From Alphaproteobacteria bacterium (GTDB lineage Bacteria > Pseudomonadota > Alphaproteobacteria > Rs-D84): a DNA stretch of 28,149 bases. Made by a program: the position numbers and the translations under genes. Below the pieces are notes generated by a model that saw only the letters and a list, made by a program, of their open reading frames with translations, searched no databases and was not told where the DNA came from. Every line of letters starts with the position of its first letter. The first letter of the stretch is position 1. The stretch is from NCBI GenBank assembly GCA_009783855.1, contig WRCO01000015.1, positions 1 through 28,149 of the forward strand. Reading direction: 5' to 3'. Shown here piece by piece: positions 7,816 through 27,743 of this stretch.

Positions 7816-9879
7816 TCAATCATGCGTTTTCTGCAAAAACTTTGCAATATTCTGGTCGCCGATTATCCGCGACATTCTGACTTTAATCAATCCTTGGTCC
7901 GCAAGTTTGGCCAAGATTTGCGGACGGCGGTCTTTAAGTTCGTCTATTATGATGTCTTCCATTTTATCCCGAGGCCGTCCGCAAAGATAACGCAATGTGT
8001 ATGGGCGTCCGCCTTTGTTTTTCCAAAGCCGCGCGGCAATGTAATGGGTCAATAATCTGTTTTCTGAAAAAGTAATGAAACTTGCATTTGTGCACAGCAC
8101 TTCGAAAATATCTTTTTCGTTTTTTCTTTTGGCCGCGGGCGACTGCAAAGCAAATGCTTTTTTATCATTCATCGCGACGAACAGGTTGAATCGGCTTATG
8201 ATGGTTTCGGATTTCATGGTAAGCAACGCCGGATTTACTATCGTCGCCCTCAGATACCGCTCTAACGATATATGCGGCGTGAATGCTTCGACAACCCCCT
8301 TGATATTGCGTTCCACCGTATCGGGAGAAGTGGTAAACAGCATTGCCGTTCTCATCGCAACATGCAGATATTGTTCGACCGGCATGTGCGGCGCGAATTT
8401 TTCCACCGCGCCGTTTATGTTGCTTATTATCTTGTCCGGCGACCTGCTGAACAATTCCAACAATGGCGCCTTTGCGGCAGTCTTTATATATTTTTCAAGC
8501 GTCAGCCCGGCGCGCCTAAATTCTTCAACAACGCCCATTATGTTGCGTTCTACAACACGCGGGGAAATGCTGAACAGCCAGGGATTGCTCATCGCTATCT
8601 TCGTATACTGCGCCAAAGTCGGGCCGCCCACATGTTCGAATTTTTCAACGACACCCTTTATATTGCCCACCACTGTATCGGACGATTGAGCCAACAGGTT
8701 GGGATATTTTTTCACAAGTTGCAAATATTGCGCGCGATTGGACCCCAGCTGTTCTGTAAATTCGTTCATCTTTCCTTCAAGTGTGTCCGGTGACCGAGTA
8801 AACAATGACGGCGCGCTTATCGCCATTTTCACAATTTGCGCGAACGAAAGTTCCGGCGCAAATTTTTCGGCGATTCCTTTTATATTGCGCTCTATTGTTT
8901 CGGGTAAGATGCAAAGCAGTTGCGGGACGTATTCCGCCGCTTTGATATATTGCCCAAGCGATATGTGCGGCGCAAATTTTTCCACAACGCCTTTTATATT
9001 TCGCTCTATTGTTTCCGGGTGAAGAGAAAGCGTCCTTGGGGCAGTTTCCATCATCTTCAAATATTTTTCCAACGTCAAATGCGGCGCGAATATTTCAACG
9101 GTGGCGTTTATGTGGCGTTCTATCAAATCGGGCGATGCCGTAAGCAATTGCGGAGATTTTTCCGCCATCCGCAAATATTTGCGCAAGCTCAGGCCCGCAT
9201 GCGCGAACCTTGCCACGACTTCGTTGGTCACTTCGTCTATTTTGCGGTCCGCTCTGTCGGACAGTTGAACATCCGGCGACGACCATTTCAGTTTCCCTTT
9301 GCGCAAAGCGTATATCGACACTGGGCCGGTCGGCTTTCCGGATTGTTCGCCGGCTTTGGCAAACTCCGCCCATCCAAGAATTCCGGCAACCTTTTCACGG
9401 TCGAACATTTTGTCAAACAGTTCCGGGGCCGAAAGCGCCGCCGACAAAGCCTGTGCGCGGGTAAGCGGTGGGAATTCTTTGACCAGGGCACCTATGTTAT
9501 ATCCCGCCATCCTGGGCGAAAGGGTAAACAGCACCGGATTTTCCAGCGCCGCCCGCCGATACCTTGGCCACGTCAGGCCGTCTCTTTCGAATTGCCGGAC
9601 CATCCCGTCCACAACATATTCCATTTCATCAACCGACATGGAAAGCAGCGACGGCATCTTTGTCACTATTTGCAGGCAATACGAATGCGACAAATCAAAG
9701 AATGCAAGCATATCGTCGAAAGTTTTCCTGAAATTCAAACGAAAGCCGTTTTTTTCGATTTGTGTTTTGGTAAACTCGTCATTTATCAATTTTTCTGCGA
9801 CATCGTCTATGGTGTCTTTTGGGAATCCCGAAATTGTCATAAGCTGCAATTTGACCTGGGTCTTTAGATTGTTTGTCAT
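7816..9879 (-). CDS. Large tandem-repeat protein: >=12 copies of ~37-aa helical repeat (P-x-LL-x-x-SP-[DE]-T-[IV]-E-R-N-I-K-G-V-V-E-K-F-A-P-H-x-S-L-x-x-Y-L-K), mTERF-like
   Basis: 687 aa; repeats read directly (e.g. PQLLCILPETIERNIKGIAEKFAPELSFAQIVKMAISA); spacing of P-LL, I-x-x-V-x-x-F and L-x-x-I matches mTERF-type motif (inference). Confidence 0.6.
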   Translation of the reverse strand: MTNNLKTQVKLQLMTISGFPKDTIDDVAEKLINDEFTKTQIEKNGFRLNFRKTFDDMLAFFDLSHSYCLQIVTKMPSLLSMSVDEMEYVVDGMVRQFERDGLTWPRYRRAALENPVLFTLSPRMAGYNIGALVKEFPPLTRAQALSAALSAPELFDKMFDREKVAGILGWAEFAKAGEQSGKPTGPVSIYALRKGKLKWSSPDVQLSDRADRKIDEVTNEVVARFAHAGLSLRKYLRMAEKSPQLLTASPDLIERHINATVEIFAPHLTLEKYLKMMETAPRTLSLHPETIERNIKGVVEKFAPHISLGQYIKAAEYVPQLLCILPETIERNIKGIAEKFAPELSFAQIVKMAISAPSLFTRSPDTLEGKMNEFTEQLGSNRAQYLQLVKKYPNLLAQSSDTVVGNIKGVVEKFEHVGGPTLAQYTKIAMSNPWLFSISPRVVERNIMGVVEEFRRAGLTLEKYIKTAAKAPLLELFSRSPDKIISNINGAVEKFAPHMPVEQYLHVAMRTAMLFTTSPDTVERNIKGVVEAFTPHISLERYLRATIVNPALLTMKSETIISRFNLFVAMNDKKAFALQSPAAKRKNEKDIFEVLCTNASFITFSENRLLTHYIAARLWKNKGGRPYTLRYLCGRPRDKMEDIIIDELKDRRPQILAKLADQGLIKVRMSRIIGDQNIAKFLQKTHD

Positions 9880-10003: not shown

Positions 10004-10972
10004 ATGAAAACAACCAAAATCTTTGGTGCCGGCGAACTTGGCGCGGCGGCGGATATTATCCGACGCGGCGGGCTTGTCGCATTTCCGACGGAAACTGTTT
10101 ACGGACTTGGCGCGGACGCGGCGAACGGCGCGGCATGCGCCGAAATCTATGCCGTAAAGGGCCGGCCCGGCGACAACCCGCTTATCATCCATGTCCATGA
10201 TATTGCCGCGGCGGATAAAATCGCCGTCGTCTGTCCGCTTGCAAAAAAATTATTCGAAACATTCGCGCCCGGTCCAATCACAATCGTTATGCAATGCCGG
10301 CCGCCGTCTATAAACGGCGGACCCGATGTCGGGGTTCGCATTCCGCGTCATCCGGTTGCGCGAAAATTTTTGGAATTGTGCGATACGCCGGTCGCCGCGC
10401 CGTCTGCGAATATATCGGGCAGATTATCGCCGACGACCGCCGGCATGGTTATGCGCGATTTGGATGGGCGGATAGACGGCGTCATCAAATCGGACGACGA
10501 CATTGAATGCGGTTTGGAATCAACCGTTGTGTCTGTTCTTGGCGGCGCGGTGCGCCTGTTGCGCGCCGGAACAATTTCGCCGGAACAAATCGAAGAATGC
10601 ATCGGCGCGCCTGTTACGGTCGCAACCGCGCCCACAGCGGGCGAGCGCGCCCTGTCCCCGGGACAAAAATACAAACATTATTCGCCAAGCGTGCCGATGG
10701 AAACAATCGAAGACATTGACGCCTTGCATGCTATAACAGACAAACATAAAAACGAAAAAATCGGTGTCATGACCCTGGCCGCGCCGAAGCAAAGCACAGA
10801 CGGATGGGATGTGCGGGTCTTCAAAAGTCCGGCCGATTATGCAAAAAATCTTTATCGCACGATGGATGAAATGGGTCGCGGCGGATGCAAGAAAATCATC
10901 GCAATCCTTCCGCCGGATACCGGCGTCGGGCGCGCGATTCGCGACCGCCTTGTCAAAGGCGCGGCTGTCTAG
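10004..10972 (+). CDS. tsaC: L-threonylcarbamoyladenylate synthase, Sua5/YrdC/YwlC family (t6A biosynthesis)
   Basis: 322 aa; FPTETVYGLGADA YrdC signature, C-terminal Sua5 extension. Confidence 0.8.
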   Translation: MKTTKIFGAGELGAAADIIRRGGLVAFPTETVYGLGADAANGAACAEIYAVKGRPGDNPLIIHVHDIAAADKIAVVCPLAKKLFETFAPGPITIVMQCRPPSINGGPDVGVRIPRHPVARKFLELCDTPVAAPSANISGRLSPTTAGMVMRDLDGRIDGVIKSDDDIECGLESTVVSVLGGAVRLLRAGTISPEQIEECIGAPVTVATAPTAGERALSPGQKYKHYSPSVPMETIEDIDALHAITDKHKNEKIGVMTLAAPKQSTDGWDVRVFKSPADYAKNLYRTMDEMGRGGCKKIIAILPPDTGVGRAIRDRLVKGAAV

Positions 10973-12618
10973 CGCGCTTTTTTCTGAATCTTCAAAACGG
11001 CATCAGCCCGTATGGAATTGGCGGCAAGGATTGCATCCATTTCTTCCTGTGATTTTTTGAAAAGCGTTCTGAACGAATACATCTGCCCGCACTTTGATTT
11101 CAAAATATTCGCGGCGCGCGAAAGGTATTTCAAATGTTCTTCCGGCAATTCCAGCACGACGGGCATTTTGCACAGCGCGTCCCAAATATTCTGGGCGGCG
11201 GCGATATAGAATTCCTGTCTTGCATGCATTCCGACAATTATATTGATGCGGCGTATAACGACCTTTGGTTCCATAAACAGCAATGGGCACTTTTGCGCCA
11301 TTTGTTCGCAATAGGGGCGGGTAAGCCCCGCGCGTTTGAAATACAATCCGACGGTGTCTATATTGCGGTTCACAGTTGCCGGCGCCCAATTGTCAAACAC
11401 AGAGTCAGGTTTGCGGCAAGGTTTCGCGGGCTCCGTCTCTATTTTGTTATCCCGCCTTTTCATATTTGCGCGGCGGTCGGCGGCGCGTTGTTGGGGCGCG
11501 TTTATAATTTCGCGAATTTCTTTGTATGTCACCGCTTCGGGCGGAGTGACAAACAGCCGCGGATTATCCAGCGCCGCCTGTACATATATAGAACGTGTCA
11601 ATCCAAAGACAGTAAATTTGGCAACCGTTCCGTTTATATTTTCGGGCAAAGTTTCCGGAGTGACCAGCAACAGGAATCTGTTAGACCGCACCGCCGCTCG
11701 GAATTGATTGAATGTCAAATCCGGCGCCAACAGTTCGACGACTTTGTTTATGAATTTCGCAACCCTGCCCTTTTCGAACAAATCCTCTGCGGAAGCGTCC
11801 GCCGTTTCGTGCCCCGTTTTTTCCGGCAATTCAACCGGGGGAAGCAATGACAACGAAAGCGGCCGATAATACAGCGGCAACGACAGCGGCAACGAATACA
11901 ACGGCAACGACAAACGCGGCAATGATAATGTCGGCATCGGCATCGACGGCAACGGCACGAACACAGGCGGCGGCGCGCGTTCCGAAGTTTGCGTGATTTC
12001 AAGTTCCGCGATATGCGGCACGACTTCGACGACCGGTGGCGCGGACAGCGCGGGCGTTTGTATGGTTTTTTCTTGCACGTCTATTTCTATCGCGCCTTTT
12101 TCACAAGGCCCGGCAAGGACAATCCGGCCATCCAAAGCCGCGTTAAAGTAATCCGCATGGGAACACCCAAGCTTTTTAATAATCGATTCGATTTTTTCCG
12201 CCATCCGGTCGGGCGACAAATAAAACAACTGTAAGCATCCGCAAAGCGCCATCCGCACGGCGTCCGCCCGCGTCAGGTATTTTCCGTATTTGCCCATAAA
12301 CGCGTCCATGCAATATCTTGCGGCGCCGGATTGCGTGTAAAACACCTGGCTGTCTTGGAATTCAAGCGCCGCTGCAAGATATTCCGGAATGGTCAAGCCA
12401 TCGCTTTGGAAAGTTTCGGCGGTGTCTTTTATATTGTCGGCTATGTCGGGAAGCGACAACCGCGGCTTTTCAGAAATTAATTCCTTGAATTCTTTCCTTG
12501 GCAAATCCGGCGCAAGCGGCTTCAGTTTATCATAAATCCTGTCCGCCCATTTCGCAACAACCATTGGGTCAATTCCCACGCCGTCCAGCCTGATAGGTCC
12601 CGATTGAAATGGCTTCAT
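10969..12618 (-). CDS. Second repeat protein of same ~37-aa (mTERF-like) family, split by Pro/Leu/Ser-rich low-complexity linker
   Basis: 549 aa; repeats e.g. NRFLLLVTPETLPENINGTVAKFTVFGLTRSIYVQAALDNPRLFVTPPEAV; linker LSLPRLSLPLYSLPLSLPLYYRPLSLSLLPP encoded by imperfect CAGCGGCAACGA-type nucleotide repeats. Confidence 0.55.
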   Translation of the reverse strand: MKPFQSGPIRLDGVGIDPMVVAKWADRIYDKLKPLAPDLPRKEFKELISEKPRLSLPDIADNIKDTAETFQSDGLTIPEYLAAALEFQDSQVFYTQSGAARYCMDAFMGKYGKYLTRADAVRMALCGCLQLFYLSPDRMAEKIESIIKKLGCSHADYFNAALDGRIVLAGPCEKGAIEIDVQEKTIQTPALSAPPVVEVVPHIAELEITQTSERAPPPVFVPLPSMPMPTLSLPRLSLPLYSLPLSLPLYYRPLSLSLLPPVELPEKTGHETADASAEDLFEKGRVAKFINKVVELLAPDLTFNQFRAAVRSNRFLLLVTPETLPENINGTVAKFTVFGLTRSIYVQAALDNPRLFVTPPEAVTYKEIREIINAPQQRAADRRANMKRRDNKIETEPAKPCRKPDSVFDNWAPATVNRNIDTVGLYFKRAGLTRPYCEQMAQKCPLLFMEPKVVIRRINIIVGMHARQEFYIAAAQNIWDALCKMPVVLELPEEHLKYLSRAANILKSKCGQMYSFRTLFKKSQEEMDAILAANSIRADAVLKIQKKAR

Positions 12619-16083: not shown

Positions 16084-16111
16084 TTGCAAACGCCGACGAA
16101 TAAAATATAAT
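16084..16111 (+). promoter_or_regulatory. Sigma70-like promoter TTGCAA-16bp-TATAAT upstream of tRNA-Gln
   Basis: -35 TTGCAA (16084-16089), 16-bp spacer, perfect TATAAT (16106-16111); ~45 nt upstream of tRNA 5' end. Confidence 0.5.
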
Positions 16112-16162
16112 GCGCACGCCGAACCACCCATCACGAACTTTGTTCGCGTCGGGGCCCGGTAT

Positions 16163-16236
16163 TGGGACGTAGTTTAACGGTAGAACAGCAGACTCTGACT
16201 CTGTTGGTTGGGGTTCGAATCCCTGCGTCCCAACCA
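16163..16236 (+). tRNA. tRNA-Gln (anticodon CTG)
   Basis: Manual fold: 7-bp acceptor (TGGGACG/CGTCCCA), D-arm GTTT/GAAC with GG loop, anticodon stem GCAGA/TCTGT, loop CTCTGAC (U33-CUG-A37), T-loop GGTTCGAATCC, encoded CCA. Confidence 0.75.
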
Positions 16237-16275
16237 GCTGTTCAAACCACAGGTGTTTACAAAATATGGGCCTTT

Positions 16276-16289
16276 CCCCCCCCCCCCCC
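16276..16289. repeat. Homopolymeric C14 tract between tRNA-Gln and glycosyltransferase start
   Basis: tttCCCCCCCCCCCCCCtcgc; 64 nt upstream of ATG 16354 and in the same continuous reading frame as the GT gene. Confidence 0.95.
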
Positions 16290-16353
16290 TCGCTTATACC
16301 TTTACCTGTTTTCGCTGATTCACAGGCGTTTTGTCGGTTTTGTATGCGGACTT

Positions 16354-17259
16354 ATGCCGGCGAAGTCTTTGGCCGTAAAAGTTGAAAGATTCCTTTATCT
16401 TTGCCGCCGACGTTTCAGGTCGGAAGCCGCCGCGGAATTTCCAAATTTCCTTTCCATCGTCTGCATCTCGAAAAACGAAGGACTTTATTTCAGGGAATTC
16501 ATAGAATTCCACCGCATGGTCGGTGTTGATAAATTCTATGTATACGACAATGAATCCGACGACGGCACCCGCGAAATTTTGGAACCGTATGTCAAAGCCG
16601 GCATCGTGGAATATATCTGTTGGCCGGGCAAAGCACAGCAACGTATCGTTTACAACCACGCGCTTTTGAAATATCGTTTCGACACCAAATGGATGGCCGT
16701 TGTTGATTTGGACGAATTCATCGTCCCGGTTGCGGATAAAACGGTCGCGGATTATTTGCGCCGCACGCCGCCATATGTGACACAGGTTGTCATCGGATGG
16801 GTGAATTATGGCTCTGGCGGGCATGAGGCGGCGCCACGCGGCCTTGTCATCGAAAATTTCAAAATGCGCATCGCGGACCCGTGCGACAAGAATGCATTCC
16901 AGCCGCGGCATGTAAAGGGAATCATAAATCCGCGGCACGTTGTAAAAGTGCGATGCCATCGTCACAAACACCTTGGGCTGGACGACGTTTCGTCCGACCC
17001 GGAGCGCAACAATTTCGGGACATGGCCGCTTCGCGTCAATCATTATCAATCCAAATCATGGGAAGAGTTTGCGAAAAAGAAAGCGCGCGGTTCGGCAAGC
17101 CCTGTGGCCCATGCCGACAATCATTTCCGCGTGGATAAAAATCAAGTTTTGGTCCGGCTGTATTCGCGCGAATGGTTTGACAGGCTTGACACGAACGATG
17201 TCAAAGATTCGATTATGGATAAACATATCGCAAAGTTGAAAAACATCTGCCCGGTATGA
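16354..17259 (+). CDS. Glycosyltransferase, GT92 (DUF23)-like
   Basis: LSIVCISKNEGLYFREFIEFHRMVGVDKFYVYDNESDDGT pattern typical of bacterial GT92 proteins; start set at first ATG after C-tract. Confidence 0.6.
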   Translation: MPAKSLAVKVERFLYLCRRRFRSEAAAEFPNFLSIVCISKNEGLYFREFIEFHRMVGVDKFYVYDNESDDGTREILEPYVKAGIVEYICWPGKAQQRIVYNHALLKYRFDTKWMAVVDLDEFIVPVADKTVADYLRRTPPYVTQVVIGWVNYGSGGHEAAPRGLVIENFKMRIADPCDKNAFQPRHVKGIINPRHVVKVRCHRHKHLGLDDVSSDPERNNFGTWPLRVNHYQSKSWEEFAKKKARGSASPVAHADNHFRVDKNQVLVRLYSREWFDRLDTNDVKDSIMDKHIAKLKNICPV

Positions 17260-25261: not shown

Positions 25262-25281
25262 TTGTCCACTATAGTGGACAA
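25262..25281. repeat. 20-bp perfect palindrome TTGTCCACTATAGTGGACAA; -35 (TTGTCC) of promoter with TATAAT at 25284-25289
   Basis: Exact palindrome; extended flank atat...atat; 77 bp upstream of ATG 25359. Confidence 0.9.
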
Positions 25282-26036: not shown

Positions 26037-26069
26037 ACTATTGTCCACTATAGTGGACAATAGTTTATC
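26032..26069. repeat. 38-bp perfect palindrome GATAAACTA-TTGTCCACTATAGTGGACAA-TAGTTTATC containing family palindrome; between convergent genes
   Basis: Exact; encloses TAA stop (26034-26036) of TraB-like gene; candidate bidirectional hairpin terminator. Confidence 0.9.
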
Positions 26070-26405: not shown

Positions 26406-26425
26406 TTGTCCACTATAGTGGACAA
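26406..26425. repeat. 20-bp perfect palindrome TTGTCCACTATAGTGGACAA forming -35/spacer of HigA-like gene promoter (TATAAT at 26397-26402 on minus strand)
   Basis: Exact palindrome 36 bp upstream of start 26370; TTGTCC-17-TATAAT then SD aaggagag. Confidence 0.85.
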
Positions 26426-26581: not shown

Positions 26582-26601
26582 TTGTCTACTATAGTAGACA
26601 A
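26582..26601. repeat. 20-bp perfect palindrome, T-variant TTGTCTACTATAGTAGACAA
   Basis: Exact; abuts stop of HExxH gene (26603). Confidence 0.9.
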
Positions 26602-27617: not shown

Positions 27618-27637
27618 TTGTCCACTATAGTGGACAA
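27618..27637. repeat. 20-bp perfect palindrome TTGTCCACTATAGTGGACAA (extended gcTTGTCC...GGACAAgc); -35 for HExxH gene promoter (CATAAT 2 bp downstream on minus strand)
   Basis: Exact; 80 bp upstream of ATG 27538. Confidence 0.85.
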
Positions 27638-27723: not shown

Positions 27724-27743
27724 TTGTCCACTATAGTGGACAT
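27724..27743. repeat. Near-perfect palindrome TTGTCCACTATAGTGGACAT (1 mismatch), tandem to 27618 copy (106 bp apart)
   Basis: Read directly. Confidence 0.85.

Follow-up and report, generated by a model that had tools for sequence, protein, structure and literature searches.

A poly-C tract at the 5′ end of a GT92 glycosyltransferase gene as a candidate translational frame switch in a termite-gut alphaproteobacterium

The tRNA-Gln–GT92 locus and its surroundings

The window, i.e. the whole stretch of 28,149 nt analysed here, comes from an uncultured alphaproteobacterium of the termite gut represented by a metagenome-assembled genome (MAG; NCBI proteins MCL27584xx). Its GroEL shares 89% identity with that of the termite-gut MAG Nt197P3bin78, and 75–80% with those of Candidatus Enterousia and other gut MAGs. 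The features referred to below are the following, in local order:

+ strand: groES-groEL
− strand, between groES-groEL and tRNA-Gln: gene for a 227-aa hypothetical protein
16084-16111, + strand: sigma-70-type promoter TTGCAA-16-TATAAT, assigned on sequence to tRNA-Gln
16163-16236, + strand: tRNA-Gln, anticodon CUG (ARAGORN; Rfam RF00005, 65.9 bits)
16266-16268, + strand: ATG16266, the sole canonical start 5′ of the conserved N-terminal helix; 7 nt separate it from the tract
16266-16385, + strand: 39-codon upstream ORF from ATG16266 in the C14 state, translation MGLSPPPPSLIPLPVFADSQAFCRFCMRTYAGEVFGRKS, TGA stop at 16383-16385
16276-16289, + strand: C14 homopolymer between tRNA-Gln and the GT92 gene
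16316-16320, + strand: TGATT, whose TGA is the stop of a 17-codon upstream ORF in the C15/C12 frame and overlaps ATT16318
16318-16353, + strand: GT-frame coding sequence of the N-terminal helix, IHRRFVGFVCGL, 5′ of the annotated start
16354-17259, + strand: GT92 glycosyltransferase, annotated coding sequence of 301 aa, NCBI MCL2758407.1
− strand, after the GT92 gene: MTS-type methyltransferase
− strand, after the methyltransferase: MipA
Both strands, after MipA: MFS transporters
281-300, 25262-25281, 26041-26060, 26406-26425, 26582-26601, 27618-27637 and 27724-27743: copies of the palindrome TTGTCYACTATAGTRGACAA

As the first-pass annotation had described, a run of 14 Cs occupies positions 16276-16289, downstream of a + strand tRNA-Gln(CUG) gene; the gap between them is 39 nt. 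The first in-frame ATG of the GT92 ORF, at 16354, lies 64 nt 3′ of the tract, and a single open frame (16162-17259) spans the tRNA, the tract and the GT gene. The length of the run is far beyond chance: elsewhere in the window C and G runs reach 6 nt at most, and the longest in 1.43 Mb around groEL of 80 related genomes is 10 nt, which C14 exceeds by 4 nt. Runs of G:C of 9 or more occur about four times per Mb in the same 1.43 Mb. G:C homopolymers of about 8 or more were regarded as hypermutable, a range in which C14 lies. The repeat is also so placed that changes in unit number would alter expression, judging from the frame simulation and the upstream-encoded helix described below and given the start codon presumed to be in use.

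The gene content 3′ of tRNA-Gln is variable among relatives and differs between the related loci L001, L081 and L082 and the window. A metagenome scan with the 3′ half of the tRNA retrieved two contigs of related organisms in which the tRNA was identical, the downstream sequence different and the tract absent. In the groEL synteny of 80 related genomes, L001 alone shares neighbouring genes with the window, and no GT92 gene follows its tRNA. The notion of a genomic island bounded by the tRNA found no support, since no direct repeat of the tRNA 3′ end was found in the window besides the tRNA itself (up to 3 mismatches allowed), no composition shift was seen (GC of 0.46–0.53 across the GT gene, like the flanks) and none of the 10 neighbouring proteins scanned carried an integrase domain. 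Separately, a 61-nt partial tRNA-Gln copy lies about 200 nt upstream of the full gene in L081 (5005-5282), L082 (1588-1866) and L001 (11800-11940), with 3′-end fragments nearby; these copies suggest that integration or recombination has taken place repeatedly at tRNA-Gln in relatives.

Transcription of the GT gene likely starts at the tRNA. The promoter TTGCAA-16-TATAAT, previously described as perfect, is present but agrees with the consensus at 10 of 12 positions, the −10 hexamer alone being perfect. Identical hexamers with identical spacing precede tRNA-Gln in the closest relative, L001, and the promoter thus appears to belong to tRNA-Gln. The scan called no terminator-like site on the + strand from 16237 to the GT stop, so transcription from the tRNA-Gln promoter into the GT gene, and hence co-transcription of the two, is likely. 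In the relative L082, a terminator directly follows tRNA-Gln; in L001, a hairpin with a T-run is seen by eye after the tRNA, where the scan makes no call. A known RNA element or structured leader was rejected for the window, given that Rfam matches only the tRNA and that the stretch from the tRNA to the GT gene has no stable structure (leader fold z-score +0.9). The suggestion that tract length might alter promoter spacing did not hold either. The scan found no sigma-70-like hexamer pair around the tract, and the only candidates by eye, TTTACA (16256-61, −35-like) and TATACC (16295-300, −10-like), are 33 nt apart. A promoter-spacer switch of the opc or porA type was therefore rejected for the window locus.

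Several other repeats were observed in the window. Close to the left end, at 103-123, apparently non-coding DNA contains a (TG)10.5 dinucleotide repeat, the second repeat here that is prone to slippage. Seven copies of the 20-nt perfect palindrome TTGTCYACTATAGTRGACAA, one of them with a single mismatch, are present where none would be expected; the majority lie at 24–28 kb, between small genes without Pfam matches, and the 80 related groEL loci contain none. Possible identities are an operator, a REP-like element and the end of a mobile element. On the − strand, a 687-aa ORF (7816-9879) is made of repeats of about 114 nt (38 aa), with a faint mTERF match as its sole precomputed Pfam match, and the adjacent 549-aa ORF (10969-12618), without a match in a direct Pfam scan, carries related repeats. 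DNA uptake sequences of Neisseriaceae and Pasteurellaceae were searched for and are absent from the window but for one chance 9-mer of the Actinobacillus type, ACAAGCGGT, at 1749.

The N-terminus of the GT92 enzyme and the reading frame through the tract

The assignment to GT92 in the first-pass annotation is confirmed by Pfam (PF01697, E=8e-31; 107.9 bits, with the curated family cut-off at 23). The closest homologue of the protein is 44% identical. The ORF is intact over 301–322 codons, and all invariant residues of the homologue alignment are present, including the D-x-D-E-F motif (VDLDEF).

In the alignment, homologues share an N-terminal module consisting of a hydrophobic helix, an I-P-x-K turn and a basic helix. 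A regular expression for a hydrophobic helix with [IVLF]-P-x-[KR] behind it, close to the N-terminus, matched 36 of 74 homologue sequences, leaving out a spurious match in P0068. Many homologues begin exactly 12 residues ahead of I-P, among them P0004, with an ATG start, and a group beginning MNKVLAEIIAG; the closest homologue, P0001, uses a TTG start at this usual family position. In the window protein, L-M-P-A-K corresponds to the turn, with the annotated Met where homologues have the conserved I; the 11 GT-frame codons ahead of this Met (16321-16353) read HRRFVGFVCGL, and ATT (16318) stands where the family usually has its start codon. Including the extension raised the score of the full-length family HMM by just 1.4 bits, which was not decisive, and we therefore adopted a position-fixed N-terminal PSSM built from 18 non-redundant homologue segments. 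HRRFVGFVCGL scored +4.05 bits (p=0.0019, i.e. 0.19% of the six-frame 11-mers of the window score as high), a value reached by 13 of 13109 shuffles of its 33 nt.

The AlphaFold2 model, for which the frame-1 translation from just after the tract was used as input, points in the same direction (mean pLDDT 83, pTM 0.82). It places a helix at residues 2–20 (pLDDT 74–87), wholly before the annotated Met22; the helix breaks at L-M-P-A, and residues 25–39 form the second one. The rest of the model has a GT-A fold, and the PDB structure that matches best is that of the GT92 enzyme GalS1 from poplar (E=1e-11). With Met22 in the turn after the first helix, the annotated protein would lack helix 1. Homology and model together thus indicate that the GT coding sequence reaches upstream of the annotated ATG, to about 16318, and that the annotated start at 16354 is probably too far downstream. 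A comparable annotation problem was observed at the homologue P0010 (L096 123-158), where the called start is probably 12 codons too far downstream; translation from an in-frame ATG that has an AAAGAG site would include the conserved helix.

At the assembled C14, ATG16266 is in frame 0 and the GT gene in frame 1. The first-pass annotation was right that this upstream ATG is out of frame with the GT gene, but had expected a slip of +1C or −2C to join the two. Simulated translations show that this direction is wrong: fusion occurs at −1C or +2C, whereas +1C gives a 17-codon ORF and C14 the 39-codon ORF. ATG16266 therefore joins the GT frame at C13, C16 or C10, with simulated products of 330 aa at −1C and 331 aa at +2C, compared with 16–17 aa at −2C and +1C. 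The upstream ORF of the C14 state overlaps both candidate GT starts.

There is no in-frame ATG, GTG or TTG between the tract and 16354, which makes ATG16266 the only canonical start able to supply the helix. Since it needs C13, C16 or C10 to do so, the tract would form codons 5–9, a Pro run, of a 330-aa ORF. Most likely, then, the tract represents codons 5–9 of a 330-aa full-length gene, a placement that is the usual layout of frame-switch genes. From the assembled C14, most likely an OFF or low state, a single deletion would lead to ON. The homology evidence itself ends at about 16318, and reading through the tract is the most likely continuation. However, ATT16318 coincides with the start position of homologues, where P0001 uses TTG, and a non-canonical start 3′ of the tract is possible on these grounds. 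Regarding ribosome binding, many well-defined genes in the window (groES, groEL, S6, S18, L9, Band7 and others) have an AAGGAG-like Shine-Dalgarno sequence 6–9 nt upstream. None was found ahead of ATG16354, and ATG16266 has a weak, distant AGGTG alone, 12 nt upstream.

Six homologue loci were inspected for tracts of their own (P0001, P0003, P0004, P0010, P0012 and P0017), and two of them carry a G11 or G9 tract towards the 5′ end of the gene. At P0001 (L100, JGI Ga0466699_307763), a G11 is located in the intergenic region 67 nt upstream of the TTG start, flanked by TTGATT and TAGACT with a spacer of 20 nt (L100 6923-7004); no other G/C run in these 14.9 kb reaches 7. At P0003 (L099 1721-1729, JAFTPS010000003.1), from a gut alphaproteobacterial MAG of roe deer, a G9 lies within the gene at codons 78–80, just before the catalytic domain. 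No G:C tract was found at P0004, P0010 or P0012; the contig of P0017 begins 27 nt upstream of the gene, so this locus was judged on its coding sequence only, and no tract was counted. Poly-Pro or poly-Gly near homologue N-termini, used as a proxy for in-frame tracts, was found in P0003 alone. A recurrence in two of six loci would arise by chance with p of about 5e-5, by a rough binomial estimate that takes target regions of about 450 nt and a background of about four tracts per Mb from other genomes. The tracts of the window and of the homologues differ in strand and position and are non-homologous, so the association of G:C tracts with the 5′ ends of GT92 genes looks convergent on sequence comparison.

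Two further observations were made at these loci. P0001 has a 17-codon upstream ORF (ATG 6951) whose TGA overlaps the TTG start (TTGA), mirroring the C15-frame ORF of the window. The roe-deer MAG that carries P0003 also has a G10 near the 3′ end of a 176-aa ORF (L039 19833-19842), which we take by eye to be acetyltransferase-like; the G9 of L099 and this G10 are possible further switch sites.

A predicted frame switch and its alternatives

We propose, with a probability of roughly 0.5, that C14 acts as a translational frame switch and that the GT92 gene is misannotated at its 5′ end. The homopolymer would be prone to slippage and belong to the true GT92 coding sequence, near its 5′ end, and the transcript would read from the tRNA-Gln promoter into the GT gene. 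At C13, C16 or C10, ATG16266 would be in frame and direct the synthesis of a 329–331-aa enzyme, MGLSPPPPRLYLYLFSLIHRRFVGFVCGL-MPAK..., helix included. At C14, the same ATG would yield a 39-aa peptide across the GT start region, and the enzyme could come only from the poor starts ATT16318 or ATG16354 (no Shine-Dalgarno, product without helix 1), an OFF or low state. One-base replication slips would switch single cells reversibly and so vary a surface glycan. For this predicted switch, we infer the slippage, the start codon in use, the transcript and the phenotype. Against it stand the lack of any observed length variant, an ATG16266 without a well-placed Shine-Dalgarno and the tract of P0001, which is intergenic and not coding. 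The broader claim of phase variation by any mechanism that depends on tract length is a likely one. In this respect, the phase-variation reading of the first-pass annotation survives in part: the tract is an extreme outlier whose length governs the ATG-to-GT92 frame, homology and model extend the coding sequence upstream and G:C tracts recur at the 5′ ends of homologues, while the slip direction, the promoter spacing and the island had to be given up.

The reality of the tract and its length bears directly on this proposal. Three assemblies of one population are available, and all their shared sequence is 100% identical. The JGI/NCBI contig, i.e. the window, is the one that crosses the tract, and in the other two the assembly breaks there. 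The MEGAHIT right-hand contig (ENA, L084) begins exactly with C14 followed by TCGC, and the Logan contig (L085) begins with TT, C14 and TCGC. The MEGAHIT left-hand contig stops four Cs into the tract, and its tip (L087 1-20 / L091 12960-12979) reads ...ATATGAGCCGTACCCC where window positions 16260-16279 read ...ATATGGGCCTTTCCCC. This flank variant, GAGCCGTA, comprises three substitutions in 8 nt (16269, 16273 and 16275) in a contig otherwise identical to the window and could reflect a second haplotype or an error-laden contig tip. Contigs of a second sample end at 17004 and 16115, short of the tract. Every contig that reaches the right flank has 14 Cs, and this agreement indicates that the tract and its length of 14 are reproducible and not the artefact of one assembler. 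The consistent breakpoint could fit read-level length heterogeneity, coverage loss or a flank variant. No tract-length variants were found among the contigs matched via the GT, neighbour and predicted ON-frame proteins, which were 100%-identical contigs only, ending at the tract or short of it, and the predicted ON-frame proteins are absent from a collection of 15 billion proteins.

An artefact, with the tRNA and GT sides misjoined via a low-complexity run, or with a true length of 13 and an intact gene, is in our estimation the least probable of the explanations considered. It could appeal to the tract being crossed in one of three assemblies, to the left-hand MEGAHIT contig, which ends after four Cs and differs from the window at three of its final 12 nt, and to the doubt attached to a 14-nt homopolymer length from Illumina reads, a platform whose length calls are unreliable for runs of this size. 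However, 14 Cs adjoin the right flank in all three assemblers, the TT before the run in the Logan contig matches the left flank of the window, and C runs end both flanks, as they should if the tract is real. Poly-G artefacts usually come after adapter sequence, whereas genomic sequence adjoins the run here, and even a length of 13 would still mean a hypermutable tract within the gene. A doubtful explanation, but the most credible competitor, is that the run plays no part in regulation and has expanded, neutrally or transiently, at a recombination-prone junction downstream of tRNA-Gln, next to a GT gene that is expressed constitutively from ATG16354 or is decaying (ATG to ATT). The sequence 3′ of tRNA-Gln differs in all relatives examined and is accompanied by tRNA fragments, ATT stands at the canonical start position, neither candidate ATG has a good Shine-Dalgarno and no length variation was seen, all of which would suit such a history. 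A 14-nt G:C run is nevertheless far outside the range of the clade, the intact ORF of 301–322 codons with its invariant residues kept and a confident fold does not suggest decay, and the independent 5′-end tracts in two homologues argue for selection.

We consider it unlikely that the tract lies in a 5′ leader or promoter and acts at the RNA level, with the enzyme starting at ATT16318 or ATG16354, either through promoter or activator geometry (as in meningococcal opc) or because C-rich, G-poor RNA loads Rho and attenuates read-through. The G11 of P0001 is consistent with promoter geometry, as its 20-nt spacer between TTGATT and TAGACT would become 17 nt at G8. Rho loading would fit the C/G ratio of 4.8 at 16270-16320, the position of the most C-over-G-biased 78-nt stretch of the window, which starts at 16229 and includes the tract, and a leader free of stable folds; and ATT16318 aligns with the start codons of homologues. 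Against action on RNA, the tract is not bracketed by a sigma-70-like pair, TATACC lacks the conserved final T, and the conserved tRNA promoter, with no terminator behind it, would already provide transcription. The enzyme would also need the annotated ATG16354 or an ATT start, and ATT start codons are rare; the ATG placed 7 nt before the tract would be left unexplained. A very unlikely elaboration of the frame switch is a three-state translational dial, instead of a two-state switch, on the transcript from the tRNA promoter. At C13/C16, ATG16266 would be fused in frame and give the N-terminally extended enzyme. At C12/C15, the 17-codon ORF would end at a UGA (16316-18) that overlaps AUU16318 (UGAUU), the family's usual start position, so that terminating ribosomes could restart there and produce a low level of native-length enzyme. 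At C11/C14, the upstream ORF would overrun both candidate starts and block them. P0001 would then resemble a fixed version of the middle state, with a 17-codon upstream ORF, a UGA overlapping the TTG (UUGA) and the G11 further upstream.

Significance and comparison with known phase-variable loci

Repeat-driven switching of surface-sugar enzymes is well described for pathogens facing host immunity; to our knowledge, far fewer reports concern commensal insect-gut bacteria. If the predicted frame switch is true, small-genome termite-gut Alphaproteobacteria would maintain mixed surface types as well, possibly directed against phages or host factors, and, considering that two homologues have G:C tracts of their own, GT92 enzymes would be a recurrent target of such switches. 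The public annotation probably sets the start codon too far downstream, and in it the tract counts as intergenic. Given that the tract breaks metagenome assemblies, loci of this kind are easily overlooked.

The closest parallels are the lipopolysaccharide (LPS) glycosyltransferase genes lgtA and lgtC of Neisseria meningitidis, in which a change from G8 to G9 inactivates lgtA and one from G12 to G13 activates lgtC (PMC3447861). As in these genes, a G:C homopolymer of comparable length (12–14 nt) in a glycosyltransferase gene would shift the frame by one base. In contrast to them, the window switch is predicted from sequence, the enzyme belongs to GT92 and not to the lgt family, the host is an uncultured termite-gut alphaproteobacterium and not a pathogen, the gene follows a tRNA without a terminator and the tract would lie at codons 5–9, within an N-terminal extension that precedes the usual family start. 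In the opc promoter of N. meningitidis, the length of a poly-C tract of 11–12 Cs sets the expression level (PMC3447861). The window likewise has a poly-C of similar length upstream of an annotated coding sequence but, unlike opc, without flanking promoter hexamers at a workable spacing; the locus of P0001 (L100), with its G11 between TTGATT and TAGACT, is closer to the opc type. At the contingency loci of Campylobacter jejuni, multiple G:C homopolymers in glycan-modifying genes generate standing variation (PMC3025981). The recurrence of tracts in several GT92 homologues echoes this pattern, although the window holds one such tract in 28 kb, and G:C runs of at least 9 are scarce in the clade, at about four per Mb. 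The locus is therefore a plausible addition to the repeat-driven phase-variable glycosyltransferases, one that would extend an already well-known class of mechanism to a commensal gut lineage.
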